Assembly: GCA_023267215.1 (NCBI GenBank)
Contig: JAHFNS010000002.1
Location: 32,149 to 96,148, forward strand
Direction of reading: 5' to 3'
DNA: 64,000 nucleotides
Source: Candidatus Nomurabacteria bacterium
GTDB lineage: Bacteria > Patescibacteriota > Minisyncoccia > Phycocordibacterales > UBA9973
The notes below the pieces were generated by a model, which was not told where the DNA came from, searched no databases, and worked only from the letters and a program-made list of their open reading frames with translations. A program made the position numbers and the translations under genes. Numbering within the stretch: the stretch's first letter is position 1; the number at the start of each line of letters is the position of its first letter. This document shows positions 1,702 to 31,164 of the stretch, one piece after another.

Positions 1702-3480
1702 TTAACGACCACGATTATTTTTAATTTCTTCTCTTTTTTTATCTATTTCTTTTATCTTTTTTAAAATTTCTATTTCTTCTGTTTTATCTTTTATATTTTG
1801 AAGCTCTATGGTCTTTTTAAAACGTTCTTCATTTAGATAATCTTCTTCCAGATTTAATAACATTTCATTTATATCTTTTTGTAAATTTTCACTATTAAAA
1901 TAAAATCTTTCAGCCTCATAAATTAAATCTTCCTTTTTATCTTTATAAACTTCTTTTATTTTTTCTAATCTTTTAAAGATCAATTCTGGGTCTATTATTC
2001 TGTTTTGTATACCCTCTTGCCAAAAGGCTATACCTAAAAGTTTACGTATTATTGGATCTTTTCTTTCTCTTTTTTCAATATTTTCTTTGGCTATTTTTAT
2101 CTCTTCTGTTTCAGATTTTAATAATGATTCCACTTTCTTTAAATCCTCTAAAAGTGCTCCCTCAGTAATACTAGATTTATTACTAATAAGTTTAATAAAG
2201 TGGGATTTTTCTATAGAACTTTCAAGGGCGTCAACATATGGCAACACTTTTTCTTTTATTTCTCTCCCCGCTTTTCGTGTATCTTCTTTATAATTATTTA
2301 AAATTTTATCTAATAAAAATTCTACAATATGCTTAGAATTACGTATTACTAGACGCCATGCATCTGTTCCACTTTTAGCCTCGCCCATTTGACTATGGCC
2401 ACGGGAAATCAAATCTGCTGGATCAAAACCTAGAGGCATAGAAATGACTTTCACATCCATCCCAAAAGAAAGAGCGATCTTAGCAGCCCGCATTGATGCA
2501 TTAAAACCTGCTTTATCAGCATCAAAGGCCAAAAGTATATTGCCAGAAAGTCTACGTAATAAACCTAAATTTGAAACAACATTCTCTTTTGAAACAGTAG
2601 AATCGGCTAATGCTGTCCCAGAGGTCGCTACAGTATTTCTAAAACCTGATTGATGAGACAAAATAAGGTCCATTTGTCCTTCCACTAAAATAGAGAAATT
2701 ATTCTTGCGAATAGAATCTTTAGCTTTATCCAAACCATATAGAACAGCTGATTTACTAAAAATAGGCGTATCTGGGCTATTTAAGTACTTTGGAGCAACA
2801 GGCAAGGCCTGTTTTTTTAACAGGCCTTGCCTGTCGCTCTCTACTTCAAAAATTCTTCCAGAAAAAGCAATGATACGTCCACTTGAATCAGAAATAGGAA
2901 AGATTATTCTACCACGAAAACGATCATACATTCCTTTTTCTGTTTTTTTAGCGAGTCCTGCAAGTTCTATCTCCCCGTCTGTAAAATTTTTATTTCGAAG
3001 ATAAGTATAAAGCAAACGCCAATCATCTCTAATAAAACCAATCCTAAAATCTTTTATGCTTCCGTCTTTCAACCCTCTTTCTTTTAAATAAGCTAACACT
3101 TCTTTATTATCTACCAAATTCTTTTCAAAAAATTTCGTAGCTTCTTCCATGATTCTATATAATCTTTCTTTTTCTCCTTCTTTTTCTTTACTAAAAGTTG
3201 CAAGAGTAACTCCGGCACGTTCTGCTAAAATTTTTAAGGCGCCTTTAAAATCAAGCCCTTCAAATTCTTCCACAAAAGTAAAGATATCTCCTTTAGCTGC
3301 ACAGCCAAAACAATAGTAAGTGCCTCTATCTACCGACACAAAAAAGGACGGCGTTTTCTCGTTATGAAAGGGGCACCTGGCTTTGAAATTTGCACCCGCC
3401 CTGTCTAACTTTATGTAAGAAGAGACTACGTCTTCGATTGAAAGCCTCTCCTTAATTTGTTCTACTGGAGAGTTGTTCAT
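1702..3480 (-). CDS. dnaG: DNA primase DnaG
   Basis: N-terminal Zn-finger [11 protein letters not shown]...CFGC, TOPRIM EGQMDLI; Lys/Glu-rich C-terminus. Confidence 0.9.
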
Positions 3481-3486
3481 AAAGTT

Positions 3487-6400
3487 TTATTCCCCCTCTT
3501 CGGGAGAAGCTATTCTACTTTTAAATCCAGTTCCAGCCGGAATTAATCGTCCAATAATAACATTCTCTTTTAATCCTCTCAAAGAATCTATTCCGCCTTT
3601 GACTGCGTTTTCAATCAAAACACGGTTGGTATTTTGGAAGGAAGCAGCAGAGAGCCAACTCTTAGTACGAAGTGAAACTTCTGTAATACCGAGCACTATT
3701 ATTTCTGCTTTCGCTTCTTTTAAGTTTATTTTAACAACTCTATTATTTTCTTCAATAAAGGCTGTATTTTCAACAATGTCTCCAGCAGAGAAATTGGTTT
3801 CACCAGCATCTTTTATTTTTCTTCGTGAGAACATTTGACGAATAATTATCTCTGTATGTTTTCTGGAAATTGAAGCACTTTGAAGTTCATAAACTTTGTT
3901 TATTTCTCGAATTATATATTCTTCAACCAACTCTTTGCCTCCAAATTTGAATATTTCAGCAATATCAGCAGACCCATCTGTAAGCAATTCCCCTTTCTTT
4001 ACTTTTTGTCCTACCTTGACTATCGGAGTTCTTCTGAATTGCACTAAATATTCTATTTCGTTATCTTTTCCATCAACCTTACTATCAGAAAGTACTCTAA
4101 TTATTTTTTCTTTTCCATCTCTATCTTTTATTTCAAAAACTTCTCCGTCAGTTTCTGAAACTAAGGCTGGATTCTTAGGAATACGTCTTTCAAAAATTTC
4201 TTCAATACGAGGCAAACCAGTAGTGATATCTGTTCCTGCCACACCTCCAGCATGGAATGTTCGAAGAGTAAGCTGGGTACCTGGTTCACCGATAGCTTGA
4301 GCCGCGATAATACCGACAGCTTCTCCTAAATCAACTAGATGGTTTCTACCCAAATCTAATCCATAACACATTTGACAAATACCATGTGTAGTATGACAAG
4401 TTAGAGGAGAGCGAACAAATACTTCTTCAAAACCCATTCCTTCGATATTATAAGCTTCTTCTTTTGTAATTAAAAATCCTTTTTTATAAACAATTTTACC
4501 ATCTTTATCTTTCAAGTCAGCTGCCAATACTCGTCCACGAAGATTTTTAGAAAGAGGGATTTCAATTCCAGAAATATTTTCTCGAGTAACGATTTTTCCT
4601 TCTTTGGTACCACAATCTTCTTCTGTAATGACCACATCTTGTGCCACATCAACCAAACGACGTGTCAAATATCCGGCTTTAGCAGTATTTAAGGCAGTAT
4701 CTGATGCACCCTTACGAGCACCATGAGTCGTCACGAAATATTCTATAGGAGAGAGACCTTCATGATAAGAAGGAATAATTGGAAATTCTAATGTTCTACC
4801 TTGGTTGTTTTGAATAAGCCCTTTCATTCCCGTCATCTGAATTAGTTGCCCCATCGAACCTCTAGCCCCAGAAGTAAGTAAATCAAAAGCTGAACCATTT
4901 TTATCTAAAGACTGAGGTAATATTTTTTCTAACTCTTTTTTAGCTTGAGTCCAAATTTCAATAATCTTTTGATATCTTTCTTCTTCTGATAAAAGACCAT
5001 CACTCCATTCAGAAATTATTTTTTCTTCTTGTTTTTTACCTTCCTCAACTATTTTTGTTTTTTCTTTCGGTACTTTTATATTATCTAATCCCCAAGTCGT
5101 ACCGGAAATAGTTGAATAATAAAAACCGAAATTTTTTATCTTGTCTAAAATGGGAGGAGTTTTGTCCACTCCATAGTGCATGATTAATTCATCTACTAAA
5201 GATGATAATCTCTTAACATTCATTTCATCACTAACATAAGAAAAATCATTTGGTAAGATGCTATTAAAAAGTAGCTTACCAACAGAGGTGTCAAAAACCC
5301 CTTCATTGAATTTTTTATATTTATGAGAATCTGTGGCCAATACTTTTATTTTTGCCCTTAAAGATACAATGCCATATTCATAAGCTGTTATGGCTGTGTT
5401 GGGACTTGAAAAATATTTCCCTTCTCCTTCTTCTCCGTCGACAGATTTCGTCATCCAATAAGAACCAAGGACTATATCTCGGCTGGGATGCACTATTGGT
5501 TCTCCATTTTGAGGTTTTAATAAATTTTTATTAGCTGCCATTAATTCTTTCGCTTCAGATTGTGCTTCTTCTAAGAGAGGTAAATATACAGCCATCTGGT
5601 CTCCATCGAAGTCAGCATTAAATGCGGCACAAACAAGTGGATGCACTTGAATAGCATTTCCTTCAATCAAAATAGGATTGAAAGCTTGAATACCTAGACG
5701 ATGCAAAGTCGGTGCACGGTTCAAGAGAACATATTTCCCTTTTATCACTTCTTCAAGCATTGCCCAAACTTCTGGTGTACGTTCTTCAATAAGTTTATTT
5801 GCTCCACGAATATTAAAAGCAAGTTCTGCTTGTAAAATTTTTGAAATAACAAATGGTCTAAAAAGTTCAAGAGCCATATGTTTTGGCAAACCACATTGAT
5901 TGAGTTTGAGCTCAGGTCCAACAACAATGACAGAACGACCAGAATAGTCTACTCGTTTACCGAGTAAATTCTGACGGAATAAACCTTGCTTTGATTTTAA
6001 ATTATCTGAAAGAGATTTAAGTGGTCGTTTTTGAGATTGACTCATCGCTGCACTATCGTTTTGCTTAGCAATAGAGTTATCTATAAGAGCATCGACAGCT
6101 TCCTGGATTATTCTTTTTTCATTTCTTAAAATAACATCTGGCGCATTTATTTCCTTCAATTTTTTCAAACGGTTATTTCTATTGATTACTCGACGATAAA
6201 GATCATTTAAATCACTGGTAGCATGACGACCTCCATCGAGAGCAACCATCGGACGTAATACTGGAGGAATAACAGGAATAACTGTCAAAAACATCCATTC
6301 TGGTCTTATCCCGGCATAGGTCATAGCACGAATTAAAGAAAGTCTCTTTTGTAATTTTTCTTTTTCGACAATGCTTGTTTTTTCAAGCATTTTTTCAGTA

Positions 6401-21825: not shown

Positions 21826-22053
21826 TTATTTTGCCTCTGCCTTCTTTGCTTTTTCTTTTTTTTGCTTCTTTTCTATTTTTTTGACCAAATCTAATACTTT
21901 CATTCCGCGGTAAAATCCACAAGATGCACAAACAGTGTGACGCTTTTTAAAATTGCCACAATTTGCGCATTTGGTAAGACCCGTGCTCATCAATGCGTGA
22001 TGAGAACGTCGGTTTGCTGTATGCGATTTTGTATGTCTCATTCGTACTACCAT
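21826..22053 (-). CDS. rpmF: 50S ribosomal protein L32 with Lys-rich C-terminal tail (start trimmed from ORF-track 22158 to Met36)
   Basis: MVVRMRHTKSHTANRRSHHAL..CANCG..CASCG L32 Zn-ribbon; ORF-track N-terminal 35 aa have no L32 counterpart and overlap thrS leader. Confidence 0.75.
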   Translation of the reverse strand: MVVRMRHTKSHTANRRSHHALMSTGLTKCANCGNFKKRHTVCASCGFYRGMKVLDLVKKIEKKQKKEKAKKAEAK

Positions 22054-22096
22054 AATGTATCCTATAGTAGCATATTCTAGTGGAAATGCAAAATTC

Positions 22097-22124
22097 TTGT
22101 ATTTTGTAAAAATAGTGCTATTAT
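22097..22124 (+). promoter_or_regulatory. candidate sigma70 promoter for thrS leader (TTGTAT-16-TATTAT)
   Basis: hexamers read directly with 16-nt spacer; untested. Confidence 0.3.
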
Positions 22125-22131
22125 TTAAGGA

Positions 22132-22291
22132 GTAGAGATTGTTATGGTCACCAACCATAATCCTATCAAATAGGACTGAAAAGCTAATCTACAAAAAATA
22201 AAAAGAGAACAAAGTTGGGTGGAACCGCGAACTAGACTCGCCCCGACAAAAATGAAATGTCGTTCATTTTTGTCGGGGCGATTTTAATTTT
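22132..22291 (+). promoter_or_regulatory. candidate T-box riboswitch leader (Thr, specifier ACC) with intrinsic terminator immediately upstream of thrS
   Basis: T-box consensus GGGTGGAACCGCG at 22217-22229; canonical antiterminator possible (GUUGGG/CCCGAC helix, 7-nt UGGAACC bulge, GCG-loop-CGC); competing 18-bp terminator 22239-22280 followed by ATTTTAATTTT; hairpin UUAUGGU-CACCA-ACCAUAA at 22145-22163 presents ACC+A. Confidence 0.5.
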
Positions 22292-22311
22292 AATAATAAC
22301 TTTAGAAATTT

Positions 22312-24069
22312 ATGGAAAAAGAAGAAAAATTACATAATTTAAGACATACGTTGGCACATTTATTGGCAGCTTCCGTCGGTAAAATATATAAATTTGATAA
22401 AGTCAAACTAACATTAGGACCTTCTATCGAAAATGGATTCTATTATGATATAGATTTTGGTGATAAAAAAATATCTGACAGTGATCTTAAAAAGATTGAA
22501 GATACCATGAAAAAAGAATTGCCAAAATGGACAACATGGGAACAAAAAGAATTAAATAAAGAAGATGCTTTAGACTTTTTCAAAAATGAATACAAAATAG
22601 AGCTCATAAATGAAATATCAGACCGTGGAGAAAAAATAACTACTTATACTTGTGGAGGTTTTACTGATTTGTGTCGAGGTGGCCACTTAGAGAATCCAGC
22701 TCAAAATATTGATCCCCTATCTTTCAAGCTCGATCGTGTGGCTGGAGCATACTGGCGTGGAGATGAAAAAAACAAAATGCTCACACGTATTTATGGGCTC
22801 GCATTTGAAACTAAAGAAGGATTAGAAAAATATTTAAATCAAAGAGAGGAAGCATTAAAAAGAGACCATAAGAAAATCGGCAAAGAAATGGGATTGTTTA
22901 CAGTTTCTGAATTAGTAGGAAAAGGGTTACCAATGTATCTACCAAAGGGTAACATAATTCGAACTCAATTAGAAAATTTTATTAGAAAAGAAAAGGAGGA
23001 TTTAGGTTATTCTTTCGTTACAATTCCACACATAGCAAAAAAAGAACTTTATATAAAAAGTGGCCATATGGGTAAATACGATGCGATGATGCCAGTCATG
23101 ACAGATGAAAACGGTGAAGAATTTGTAATGAAAGCCATGAATTGTCCTCATCATTTTGAAATATACAATGCAGAACCACATAGTTATCGTGATCTACCAT
23201 TACGCATAGCAGAAAATACAACTGTATACCGAAACGAAAAAAGTGGAGAACTAGCTGGACTTTTACGTGTTAAAAACTTAACTCAAGATGACACTCACCA
23301 TTTTATAAGAGCTGATCAAATTGAATCAGAAATCGAAATGATTTTTGGTTTAATGCAAAAAGTTTATAAGATATTTGGATTTGATGATTATAAGGTTGAG
23401 GTTTCTACTCGAGACAAAAAAAATAAAGAAAAATATTTTGGAAGTGATGAAGTATGGGAAAAAGCTGAAGAAATATTAGTAAATTCTGCAAAAAAGATGG
23501 GCCTCAAATATAGCATAGAAGAAGGAGAAGCCGCTTTCTATGGACCTAAAATTGATATAAAAGTAAAAGATTCAATAGGGAGAGAATGGCAATTAACCAC
23601 AGTACAACTTGATTTTAATCAACCAAATAATTTTGAAATGGATTATGTTGGAGAAGACGGCAAGAAACACCGTGTTGTTATTTTACATGTTGCAATATTC
23701 GGATCTTTCGAAAGGTTTATGGGAGTTCTTATTGAGCACTACGCTGGAATCTTCCCTCTTTGGCTCTCGCCTATACAGGTAAAAATTATACCCGTCAGAA
23801 CAAATCATAATGAGTATGCCAAAAAAGTTTATGAACTATTGAAGGAAAATAATATTCGTGCAGTACTAGATGACGAAGAAGCAAATCTCGGTGGAAAAGT
23901 TCGTGATGCTAAAAATAATAAAATTCCTTATTGGATAGTTGTTGGCGACAAAGAAATAGAAGCCGATAAAGTTACCTTAGAATCTCGCGATAAAGGACAG
24001 CTTGGTCAAATTTCAAAAGAAGAACTCGTTGTGAAATTGAAGAAAGAAATTGCAGAAAAAATTTCTTAA
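22312..24069 (+). CDS. thrS: threonyl-tRNA synthetase (lacks N-terminal TGS domain)
   Basis: editing-domain HxxxH (LRHTLAHLLA), class II motifs (YRDLPLRIAE, FERFMGVLIEHY), C-terminal anticodon-binding domain. Confidence 0.95.
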   Translation: MEKEEKLHNLRHTLAHLLAASVGKIYKFDKVKLTLGPSIENGFYYDIDFGDKKISDSDLKKIEDTMKKELPKWTTWEQKELNKEDALDFFKNEYKIELINEISDRGEKITTYTCGGFTDLCRGGHLENPAQNIDPLSFKLDRVAGAYWRGDEKNKMLTRIYGLAFETKEGLEKYLNQREEALKRDHKKIGKEMGLFTVSELVGKGLPMYLPKGNIIRTQLENFIRKEKEDLGYSFVTIPHIAKKELYIKSGHMGKYDAMMPVMTDENGEEFVMKAMNCPHHFEIYNAEPHSYRDLPLRIAENTTVYRNEKSGELAGLLRVKNLTQDDTHHFIRADQIESEIEMIFGLMQKVYKIFGFDDYKVEVSTRDKKNKEKYFGSDEVWEKAEEILVNSAKKMGLKYSIEEGEAAFYGPKIDIKVKDSIGREWQLTTVQLDFNQPNNFEMDYVGEDGKKHRVVILHVAIFGSFERFMGVLIEHYAGIFPLWLSPIQVKIIPVRTNHNEYAKKVYELLKENNIRAVLDDEEANLGGKVRDAKNNKIPYWIVVGDKEIEADKVTLESRDKGQLGQISKEELVVKLKKEIAEKIS

Positions 24070-28632: not shown

Positions 28633-30414
28633 CTAGCGTATTTGCCAACTTGAATTTTCGCTTATTTTATGGCTTATTTTGGCCATAATTTCACTTACTT
28701 CTTCGTCTTTTAGTGTTCTTTCGTATGATTGGAAAATGAGTCTAAAAGCATATGATGTTTTACCGTCTTTTGTGAACGAATCGAATACGTAAGGTTCCTT
28801 AATCAGAAGATCTGTTCCATTTTCTATGAGTATCTTTTTTAACTTTTCAGGATCTTCCCTTTCTGCCATCCACACAGCGACATCACGAGAGATGAATGGA
28901 TAGATGGACCAAGGCTTAAACATAGGCGTTAGGCCATAGGCTTTAGGCTCTAGTTTAAAATCTAAATCCATATCTTTAGAAAAATCATCTAATGTGACTT
29001 CAATAATATTTTTCTTCTCATTATAAGCAACGTGCATTTCTTCTCCACTTTTTTTAAACACAGTTCCAATTTCAAAAATCTTTATCTCGTTCATTTCAAG
29101 CAGTGGCATGTTGAGTTGATTTAATTTCAAACTCTCTTTTAACCCATCACTCAAATTTGTTCTTAAAAACTTTTTATCAGAAGCAGAAGCAAGTACCTCC
29201 ACTTCCCCTTTATCTCTAAAAGCATAAGTCATCACTTCGCTATATCCATCGTTTAAAAGTTTATTACGAGCCCAAAGCATTTTGGAAAAATTTTCATTTA
29301 TTTTTGAACTCCAATTTATTTCTGGAAGTTTTTCTTCTAATTTTTCATATCCCAAAATTCTTCCAATTTCTTCTACCATATCTTCTTCTATCGCTAGATC
29401 AAAACGCATCGGCGGTAAAATAATTTCAAAATTATTGTCACTTTGTGTATATTCAAAATTATATCTACTTAAAATATCTTTTATTTCATCTAATGAAATA
29501 TTTATACCTAAAACTTTTGACATTTTATCAGCAGAAAAAGAAAGTTTTCTTGTTTCTTGTTTCTTTGGGTAGATATCAATAATTTCCTCAAATTCCATTC
29601 CACCATATTCAACCAAAAGTCCTGATAGTTCTCTCATTGCATATGAAGCAAGTTCTGAAGATAAATTATTTTCAAATCTTTTTGATGAATCAGTAAAAAC
29701 ATTTACTCTCTTTGAGGTCTTACGCACAGAAATGGGATCAAAGTTGGCAACTTCTATTAAAATATTTTTTGTATTCTCATCTACCTCAGCCATTTTTCCA
29801 CCTTTGACTCCAGCAATAGCAAGAACATTTTTACTATCTGCAATTACCATATCTGCAACTGAAAGTTTTATTTCTTTTCCATCCAAGGTTATAATGTTTT
29901 CTCCTTCTTTGGCTGACCTAATGATTATTATTTCGTCTGCCAGTTTATCTAAATCAAAAGCATGACATGGCTGACCAGAGTCATACATTACTATATTTGT
30001 CGCATCAACTATGTTATTAATGCTTCTCTGCCCAATAGACTCTAGATGTTTTTTAACCCAATCTGGCGAAGGACCAATTTTCACATTCCTCACAATTCTA
30101 CCCATATAACGACGGCATTTATCTGTCTCTATTTTAATCTTTAGTTTAGTCGGTTTTGTTTCTGGAATTTTATAAAAAGATGTAGGATCATTAAATTTAA
30201 CTCCTAACTGACTAGCAACTTCACGAGCTATTCCCTGATGAGAAAGTAAATCATGGGCTCGGTTTGGCAAAATATTTAAATCGAAAATAGTATCGTCTAC
30301 TATTTTTTCTGTTCCCTCTACTTCACAAAGATGAAAAGTCAAAATATCAGATAATTTATCTTCACTTGGAATTTCCGGAATATATGATTTTAACCAGTTG
30401 TAAGAAATTTTCAT
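28633..30414 (-). CDS. pheT: phenylalanyl-tRNA synthetase beta subunit (short form)
   Basis: B3/4 and B5 domain pattern, adjacent to pheS; 593 aa CPR-type. Confidence 0.85.
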   Translation of the reverse strand: MKISYNWLKSYIPEIPSEDKLSDILTFHLCEVEGTEKIVDDTIFDLNILPNRAHDLLSHQGIAREVASQLGVKFNDPTSFYKIPETKPTKLKIKIETDKCRRYMGRIVRNVKIGPSPDWVKKHLESIGQRSINNIVDATNIVMYDSGQPCHAFDLDKLADEIIIIRSAKEGENIITLDGKEIKLSVADMVIADSKNVLAIAGVKGGKMAEVDENTKNILIEVANFDPISVRKTSKRVNVFTDSSKRFENNLSSELASYAMRELSGLLVEYGGMEFEEIIDIYPKKQETRKLSFSADKMSKVLGINISLDEIKDILSRYNFEYTQSDNNFEIILPPMRFDLAIEEDMVEEIGRILGYEKLEEKLPEINWSSKINENFSKMLWARNKLLNDGYSEVMTYAFRDKGEVEVLASASDKKFLRTNLSDGLKESLKLNQLNMPLLEMNEIKIFEIGTVFKKSGEEMHVAYNEKKNIIEVTLDDFSKDMDLDFKLEPKAYGLTPMFKPWSIYPFISRDVAVWMAEREDPEKLKKILIENGTDLLIKEPYVFDSFTKDGKTSYAFRLIFQSYERTLKDEEVSEIMAKISHKISENSSWQIR

Positions 30415-30417
30415 ATT

Positions 30418-31164
30418 TTAAAATTGATTAAATCTTAGATCACCTTGATAAGCTGGGCGAATGTCTGGCATACCATATTTAATAATCATTAATCTTTCAA
30501 GTCCTGGACCAAAAGCAAAACCTTGATATTTTGTAGAATCAATTCCACAATTTTTTAAAACATCTGGATGCACCATACCAGCCCCACCCATTTCGAGCCA
30601 TTTGCCATTGAACTTCATATCAAATTCTATAGATGGTTCAGTAAAAGGAAAAAAACTTGGACGAAATCTAATTTCAATATTTTCACCTAACATTTTTTTA
30701 CAAAAATAAGAAAGTGTCGCTTTAAGATTGGACATATTTATATTTTCTCCTATTACTAAACCTTCGATTTGATAAAATTGCATTTCATGAGTTGCGTCTG
30801 TTGCTTCATTACGAAAACATTTTCCAGGAGCAATAATGGCAAACGGTGGTTTACCTCCAGATTTAACTAAATTTTCCATATATCTAATTTGCACATTTGA
30901 AGTATGTGTTCTCAATACCTCTCCTTCCTTTCCTTTGATATAAAAAGTGTCTTGCATGTCACGAGCGGGATGATCTTTAGGAACATTTAATGCATCGAAA
31001 TTGTGCCAAACATCTTCAAGTTCAGGCCCTGTAGCCACTTCAAAACCAAGCTCGGTAAAAATCTTTACCGCGTCATTTATTACTATAGAAAGTGGGTGTT
31101 CCCTGCCAGCGCAGGCAGGCCTACCTTTTTTTATCTCTTCACTCATTAGAAAAATATAGCACAA
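30418..31164 (-). CDS. pheS: phenylalanyl-tRNA synthetase alpha subunit (catalytic core only)
   Basis: [11 protein letters not shown] motif 1 region, class II motifs 2/3 (FRNE..., GAGMVHP); true start possibly Met7. Confidence 0.9.

Follow-up and report, generated by a model that had tools for sequence, protein, structure and literature searches.

A probable threonine-specific T-box riboswitch with a non-canonical 5′ domain in the thrS leader of Candidatus Nomurabacteria and related CPR bacteria

Introduction

Canonical transcriptional T-boxes (RF00230) have a conserved core, a 7-nt UGGN-ACC bulge between helices A1 and A2 and a terminator formed in part by the 3′ strands of these helices. 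Their specifier matches the aaRS gene, has C at the third position and is followed by a purine; the N of the bulge matches the discriminator base. The specifier is carried by an internal loop with an S-turn, and a K-turn/GA motif, a long Stem I, an AG bulge and a distal loop (elbow platform) are found. The glyQS type has neither Stem II nor the IIA/B pseudoknot. Ultrashort Stem I T-boxes of ileS were reportedly described in Actinobacteria by Sherwood, Grundy and Henkin in 2015, with structures from M. tuberculosis and N. farcinica. These leaders precede ileS only and are translational (sequestrator/anti-sequestrator); Stem I is very short, the specifier is in its terminal loop, the elbow-binding double T-loop is lacking, and the tRNA is held via its anticodon and its NCCA end. 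The translational operator of E. coli thrS mimics the anticodon arm and is bound by ThrRS.

Three rules are given in reviews: transcriptional T-boxes require a long Stem I with an elbow-binding double T-loop; a short Stem I with the apical-loop arrangement occurs only in ileS leaders that act on translation and depend on a K-turn and Stem II; the discriminator cannot do without Stem III (PMC7583486; bioRxiv 10.1101/2023.02.28.530422). [quoted passage not shown]

The leader described here precedes thrS (threonyl-tRNA synthetase). It can be read with high confidence as a threonine-specific T-box riboswitch controlling thrS by transcription attenuation, because of its sequence, structure, covariation, gene association and discriminator match. 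A probable Thr-specific T-box with terminator/antiterminator competition had been proposed in a sequence-only reading of this DNA; related leaders, covariation and an invariant ACC codon support it.

The thrS locus

The window is the whole stretch of DNA analysed (64,000 nt); its G+C content is 32%. Besides an unlabelled self-match (100%), the window ThrRS is closest to proteins labelled Candidatus Nomurabacteria or Paceibacterota (at most 89% identity), and the host is therefore a CPR/Patescibacteria bacterium. The leader (22132-22291, +) is promoter-proximal and lies between the divergent genes rpmF and thrS, which are separated by 260-270 nt. The features are as follows.

21826-22041 or 22053 (−): rpmF.
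22097-22124 (+): thrS promoter; −35 TTGTAT 22097-22102, 16-nt spacer, −10 TATTAT 22119-22124. Evidence: sequence and relatives.
22132-22136 (+): 5′ strand of P1, GUAGA; pairs with 22188-22192 and closes the 5′ domain (5 bp). Outer pair covaries.
22137-22141 (+): junction strand J1/2, GAUUG. Invariant in the 14-sequence seed alignment A1; invariant by construction in the metagenome set, where it is part of the search pattern.
22142-22160 (+): P2, specifier hairpin; 6-bp stem (22142-22147 with 22155-22160), loop UCACCAA (22148-22154). Evidence: covariation, RNAalifold.
22161-22175 (+): P3, variable hairpin UCCUAU-CAA-AUAGGA, optional in the family. A hairpin is predicted there in most members.
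22176-22183 (+): P4 (tentative), mini-hairpin CU-GAAA-AG. One supported pair.
22184-22192 (+): junction strand J4/1, CUAA (invariant), and 3′ strand of P1, UCUAC (22188-22192).
22193-22213 (+): A-rich linker, ending in the conserved purine string GAGAACAAA (22205-22213).
22214-22247 (+): antiterminator; A1, 22214-22219 with 22242-22247; bulge, 22220-22226; A2, 22227-22230 with 22238-22241; loop, 22231-22237.
22238-22291 (+): intrinsic terminator; 19-bp hairpin 22238-22281 and U-tract 22282-22291. Evidence: fold, covariation.
22312-24069 (+): thrS, regulated gene (585 aa).

The sequence features described earlier are each present, with coordinates that differ by 1 nt at most.

The pair TTGTAT-16-TATTAT, previously proposed as the promoter of the leader, is present, and most of the 110 relatives with enough upstream sequence have an equivalent −35/−10 pair at an equal, fixed distance from P1 (TTGNNN at 16-17 nt from the −10 hexamer). 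TATTAT ends 7 nt 5′ of the first paired base (P1) in the window; a −10-like hexamer ends 6-7 nt 5′ of P1 in 79 of these 110 members and is TATTAT in 57. In a generic promoter scan of the window, the thrS promoter was under the cut-off. Transcription would start at ~22131-22132, about 7 nt past TATTAT. The RNA thus probably starts at P1, so that there is no room for a hidden canonical Stem I.

The N-terminal extension of rpmF in the ORF track had been considered non-coding, and it is indeed not conserved in relatives without the leader. The long ORF reaches 22158; relatives are conserved only as far as the MVVRMRHTKS start, and the leader-less ones are unrelated beyond it. Judged from this comparison, the long ORF to 22158 is an artefact. 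A candidate rpmF promoter (TTGCAT, 16-nt spacer, TACTAT) is found at ~22063-22090 (−), back to back with the thrS promoter, and relatives share the block CATTCGTACTACCATAATG at the start of rpmF with almost no change in the DNA. According to Pfam, the window ThrRS has tRNA_SAD, core and anticodon-binding domains and no N-terminal TGS domain; the same holds for relatives. The only other aaRS genes identified in the window are pheT (28633-31164, −) and a probable pheS upstream of it; these lie directly against the upstream helicase gene, and neither a leader nor a T-box motif precedes them.

Distribution of the leader

The thrS loci from 80 species-level genomes of related CPR bacteria (Paceibacterota/Nomurabacteria) were compared. 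A homologous leader is found upstream of thrS in 15 of them. The exact 13-mer is present about 90 nt (once 195 nt) 5′ of thrS in 13 of the 15; the L034 leader is a diverged version and that of L031 is truncated by the end of its contig. When 1.39 Mb around thrS in the 80 genomes was searched with a covariance model of 14 leaders, all matches were upstream of thrS and there were no others. Metagenomes were scanned with a pattern that fixed only AGAGAUUG, CUAAUCUA and GGUGGNACC, whose invariance in this set is thus partly by construction. The scan gave 115 contigs, in which 100 different leader sequences are represented. In 106 of them the leader is followed by thrS, and 8 of the remaining 9 loci are truncated at a contig end. 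In the ninth, L116, the first gene after the leader is a MazG-like ORF, and thrS starts only a little ahead of the contig end. This ORF of ~130 aa, MazG-like by eye, lies between leader and thrS in L103 (~5670-6080) and L116 (minus strand); in this lineage the T-box would control a two-gene operon.

The closest relatives of the window (L001, L003-L005, L007, L008, L079; 82-89% ThrRS identity) have no leader. In leader-less sisters the rpmF-thrS spacer is cleanly shorter and no T-box remnant is visible in the 100 nt upstream of thrS. Since relatives with a ThrRS as close as 89% identity do without it, the leader is dispensable. In the ThrRS tree, leader-bearing genomes are scattered over the Paceibacterota part, and their sister is often a leader-less genome. 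The simplest reading of this pattern is an old element that would have been lost many times.

Several other arrangements were observed at these loci. The −10 hexamer lies only about 8-12 nt from the thrS ATG in L001, L003-L005, L007, L008, L014, L033 and L079; a near-leaderless thrS mRNA is implied for the leader-less sisters. In L152 (~2430-3400), L169 and L193, ThrRS starts at about residue 183 of the window protein, without the N-terminal editing-domain region, and the T-box leader is kept. In L006 (9780-10000), what seems to be a shortened duplicate of the thrS 5′ end, with GC-rich hairpins after it, lies upstream of the intact thrS. In L006 and L009 (9890-9990), a hairpin with a GUCCCGU stem arm lies between the promoter or terminator and the thrS start; its partner is ACGGGAC in L006 and AACGGAAC in L009.

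Antiterminator and terminator

The conserved T-box sequence (AAnnnGGGUGGNACCGCG) is represented in the window by GGGUGGAACCGCG (= GGGTGGAACCGCG) at 22217-22229. As first noted from the sequence, the match in the thrS leader is exact; it is also unique. GGGTGGAACCGCG is the sole match in the window even when 2 mismatches are allowed, and ~2e-4 exact matches are expected from base composition in 64 kb, both strands. The GGG and GCG flanking GGUGGNACC are conserved beyond the search pattern in most metagenome members.

The canonical antiterminator that had been drawn around this core (GUUGGG/CCCGAC, UGGAACC bulge, GCG/CGC helix) is the minimum free energy fold of 22210-22250 (−11.1 kcal/mol). A1 is GUUGGG/CCCGAC (6 bp), A2 is GCGA/UCGC (4 bp) and the bulge is UGGAACC (7 nt). 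The 5′ strand of the terminator is the 3′ strand of the antiterminator (A1/A2), and the two folds are mutually exclusive. The terminator hairpin has a free energy of −32.5 kcal/mol (z = −9.8). The U-tract TTTTAATTTT (= UUUUAAUUUU, 22282-22291) ends 20 nt 5′ of the thrS ATG at 22312. The earlier description of a competing hairpin with a U-tract 20 nt before the ATG thus stands; its extent, given as 18 bp at 22239-22280, is corrected to 19 bp at 22238-22281.

Every ultrashort Stem I T-box described so far is translational (bioRxiv 10.1101/2023.02.28.530422; PMC7583486), and tRNA binding could by analogy control ribosome access here, alone or together with transcription, as in actinobacterial ileS leaders. 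This is very unlikely: the competing helix is a 19-bp GC-rich hairpin directly before a conserved U-tract, and the terminator ends 20 nt (window) to more than 100 nt (L009) before the ATG and overlaps no Shine-Dalgarno-like sequence or start codon.

Two parts of the discriminator of these Thr leaders depart from the canonical form. The published discriminator signature is RRRxG-Stem III-AA (PMC7583486). A true Stem III with GAGNG and AA(A) flanks is found in 26 of 109 distinct members. The window has GAG-AAC-AAA before A1 and no Stem III hairpin, as do 83 of the 109; in these 83, the 9 nt 5′ of A1 are R-A-G-A-A-C-A-A-A, each at 80% or more. By sequence, Stem III is in effect collapsed to AAC in about 77% of members, the window's included. 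The other part is the A2 pair beside the T-box bulge (window 22227/22241; columns 129/176 of alignment A3), which is G-C in 79 of 100 sequences and A.C in 17. In canonical T-boxes, a conserved G.U at the base of A2 is described as a 'steric sensor' of the aminoacyl group. With G-C or A.C instead of G.U, the sensing of charging may work somewhat differently.

The 5′ domain and its covariation

The first 61 nt of the leader form a small multi-helix junction, in which P1 encloses P2, P3 and perhaps P4. The sequence-only reading had placed an ACC-bearing hairpin upstream of the core. That hairpin is present (22142-22160), as one arm of the junction closed by the 5-bp P1, which refines the view of an isolated hairpin. 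The 5-nt loop CACCA assigned to it was not retained: the family loop has 7 nt, because the extra U-A pair of the window is C.A in most members. Sequence and loops of P3 are unconserved, and P3 is absent from 'UUUACC' variants (e.g. L045). For P4, a stem of 2-4 bp is possible in 97 of 100 members; its loop is of the GNRA type in 32 of 111, and 58 of 111 have at least 3 A there. Its closing pair covaries (C-G 74, U-A 7; 0 of 2000 shuffles as high) and its second pair is not significant; P4 is weakly supported and kept as tentative.

By inspection of the 61-nt 5′ domain, no K-turn/GA motif and no conserved AGUA/GAA S-turn was seen. No elbow-binding double T-loop platform, long Stem I or Stem II/pseudoknot is found in the family, and no conserved segment is long enough for Stem II or the pseudoknot. 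P1 could on paper also pair in another register (AGAUUG/UAAUCU), every position of which is invariant; RUAGA/UCUAY is favoured by the outer pair, which covaries.

Covariation among related thrS leaders, suggested earlier as a check, was found in A1, the terminator and P2, the homologues coming from 15 of the 80 genomes and from the 115 metagenome contigs. An alignment of 100 sequences was fitted to the P1, P2 and terminator helices; A1 was outside the model used. Compensatory changes affect all 6 pairs of P2 (97.7% of cells paired), 3 pairs of A1 (97.6% paired) and 14 of the 19 pairs of the terminator (97.5% of cells paired). The P2 helix is also recovered by RNAalifold on an independent MAFFT alignment. 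The outer pair of P1 is A-U in 61, G-C in 19, U-A in 8, G.U in 9 and other in 3 of the 100 sequences; the remaining four show no variation, or variation in one sequence only. In 500 shuffles, the score, the paired fraction and the count of double changes all stayed below the observed values, and sliding the partners by 1-3 columns lowers the paired fraction from 97% to 33-46%.

The missing canonical parts and the repeated loss in close relatives would also be expected of a decaying remnant, that is a canonical T-box that has lost its tRNA-recognition domains and is now a constitutive attenuator or terminator en route to deletion. Against this, the 5′ domain is more conserved than ThrRS, the GAUUG/CUAA junction strands and ACC being invariant down to ~44% ThrRS identity, and P2, P1 and A1 are kept by compensatory changes. 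Such changes and invariant strands point to purifying selection on structure, not decay. A constitutive terminator of −32 kcal/mol before an essential gene would, moreover, be harmful. Decay is slightly less credible than translational control.

Specifier and tRNA

The P2 loop of the window contains the Thr codon ACC (22150-22152), followed by A22153. A specifier ACC + A in a short apical hairpin had been the basis for calling the leader Thr-specific; in the family, ACC is invariant, the stem below it covaries and thrS is downstream wherever this is assessable. ACC occupies loop positions 3-5 in 115/115 metagenome and 14/14 genome members, and the following base is A (G in 2 members). The loop is CUACCAA in 91 of the 115 metagenome members, on a stem that varies freely. 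Although the metagenome pattern left the codon free, only ACC was found; the family has one specificity, and no other was met. The other matches to GGTGGNACC in the loci are in coding sequence and have no terminator. With 67 of the 492 Thr codons (14%), ACC is a minor codon of this genome, so that its invariance in the loop agrees with the preference of T-boxes for a third-position C in the specifier (PMC7583486) rather than with codon bias.

The window and 195 loci (2.1 Mb) were searched with ARAGORN. Three tRNA-Thr genes were found, all in leader-less relatives: tRNA-Thr(GGU) in L039, and tRNA-Thr(UGU) in L017 and in L066. All three have U73; among the other 16 of the 19 tRNAs found, U73 is present in tRNA-Cys only. 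The UGGA of the bulge is complementary to the U73 end of these tRNA-Thr, which come from related, leader-less Paceibacterota loci. It is conserved in all lineages but one, which has UGGG, still compatible with U73 through G.U. The GGU anticodon of tRNA-Thr likely pairs with ACC, loop against loop. The genes around the L039 tRNA-Thr(GGU) are unconserved hypotheticals. In L054 (13895-13968, −), ARAGORN also reported, flanked by two tRNA-Ala genes, a tRNA whose anticodon has four bases (gaaa); this may be an artefact or a tRNA of the frameshift type.

The layout of the P2 loop resembles that of an anticodon loop: 7 nt, a pyrimidine-rich 5′ side, a triplet and purines (Y-N-A-C-C-A-A). In size and loop length, too, P2 matches an anticodon arm, and thrS is also the gene under control in the E. 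coli case. ThrRS could on this ground be supposed to bind P2 as an anticodon-arm mimic and to regulate its own synthesis, the downstream hairpin being an ordinary attenuator or stabiliser. The triplet, however, is the codon ACC and not an anticodon (GGU/UGU/CGU): the loop complements the anticodon loop of tRNA-Thr and does not mimic it. Autoregulation would also leave unexplained the T-box core with a UGGA that matches U73 and the covarying antiterminator and terminator, and its likelihood is smaller again than that of decay. The least probable alternative, which was rejected, is a purely RNA-internal or other-ligand switch in which the ACC loop pairs within the leader: CCAAC (22151-22155) is complementary to GUUGG of A1 (22214-22218) in the window, but the loop stays CUACCAA in 18 members in which the 5′ strand of A1 is ACUAGG instead of GUUGGG, so that the loop does not covary with A1, which covaries with its own 3′ partner.

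Detection by the Rfam model

A scan with RF00230, the standard check, had been proposed for the T-box assignment; the leader is far below threshold and would have been missed by it. No match was found in the window at the gathering threshold. In a permissive local scan, the window leader scores 24.5 bits against a threshold of 93 (E = 0.0015). The alignment is sensible over the T-box/antiterminator only, and promoter DNA is forced into 'Stem I'. Members with Stem III reach 28-40 bits, with Stem III and its AAGNG...AA flanks aligned well. The scores are below threshold because the whole 5′ half is non-canonical and the model depends on a canonical Stem I; a low score is thus not evidence of absence. 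Refutation had been tied to a low Infernal score together with absence of the arrangement in related genomes. The score is far below threshold, the leader is present in relatives, and the T-box reading is not refuted. TBDB was built with the Rfam model and an actinobacterial model (PMC7778990); judged from these models alone, it would probably miss the Thr leader family.

Comparison with known T-box classes

The Thr leaders share with canonical transcriptional T-boxes the core, the 7-nt bulge between A1 and A2, the terminator formed with the A1/A2 3′ strands, the match of specifier to aaRS gene, the third-position C with a purine next, and a bulge N that matches the discriminator. The RRRxG...AA flanks around Stem III are common to canonical T-boxes and the 26 Stem III-bearing members (of 109). 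As in the glyQS type, Stem II is absent.

The differences concern mainly the 5′ half. The specifier is in the 7-nt apical loop of a 6-bp hairpin, whereas it is in an internal loop with an S-turn in canonical T-boxes; the K-turn/GA motif, long Stem I, AG bulge and distal loop are all lacking, and the hairpin is set in a P1-closed junction with invariant GAUUG/CUAA strands. About 77% of members have AAC in place of Stem III, and the closing pair of A2 is G-C or A.C instead of G.U. Rfam scores are 24-40 bits against 93, and the hosts are CPR/Patescibacteria.

The resemblance to the ultrashort Stem I of actinobacterial ileS T-boxes, which had been remarked on before, is borne out: in both, Stem I is very short and ends in a loop that carries the specifier, an elbow platform or double T-loop is absent, and the tRNA would be held by its anticodon and its NCCA end. 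The Thr leaders differ from them by the terminator and U-tract, the gene (thrS) and the codon (ACC). [quoted passage not shown] The E. coli thrS operator is likewise part of a thrS leader and has a hairpin of anticodon-arm size; it mimics the anticodon and binds a protein, whereas the loop of the Thr leaders is a codon, joined to a T-box discriminator.

The Thr leaders, present in over 100 sequences from related CPR bacteria, are thus very likely a new structural variant of the transcriptional T-box, as far as sequence comparison can tell. The full-text literature, in a coverage that includes few subscription papers, yielded no paper that connects T-boxes to CPR, Patescibacteria, Parcubacteria or Saccharibacteria.

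Proposed mode of action

Under the T-box reading, transcription would start ~7 nt past TATTAT and the first 61 nt of the RNA would fold into the junction. The P2 loop would display ACC and the following purine, with which the GGU anticodon of tRNA-Thr would pair. About 60 nt downstream, the UGGA of the bulge would pair with U73-C-C-A of the same tRNA, and only if the tRNA 3′ end carries no amino acid, as in the mechanism of the T-box family. The tRNA end would stabilise the weak antiterminator (−11 kcal/mol) against the stronger terminator (−32.5 kcal/mol), and the polymerase would read into thrS. When tRNA-Thr is charged, the terminator would form and transcription would stop at the U-tract.

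Lateral support may matter less for the G-C-rich ACC/GGU helix, an argument already made for glycine T-boxes without Stem II (PMC7583486). The invariant GAUUG/CUAA junction strands and the P4 loop are candidate replacement contacts.

Significance

The Thr leader family, with more than 100 distinct natural sequences and clear structural selection, breaks all three rules given in reviews. It is slightly more likely than not that these leaders are a distinct minimal class of transcriptional T-box, in which the tRNA is held by two paired contacts only, the kissing of specifier and anticodon loops and the NCCA/bulge helix, without K-turn, elbow platform, Stem II and mostly without Stem III. If this is true, parts thought essential for co-transcriptional tRNA sensing would be dispensable, or replaced by an unrecognised junction motif, for which the invariant GAUUG/CUAA strands and the A-rich P4 loop are candidates; the leaders would also be the first T-box class in CPR bacteria.

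The Thr leaders provide a natural minimal scaffold (~150 nt) for the requirements of tRNA decoding and charging sensing, and a compact part for engineering. They are evidence of T-box regulation in Patescibacteria/CPR that is missed by standard Rfam/TBDB-style scans. Their repeated clean loss among near-identical relatives is a natural experiment on the dispensability of T-box control in reduced genomes.
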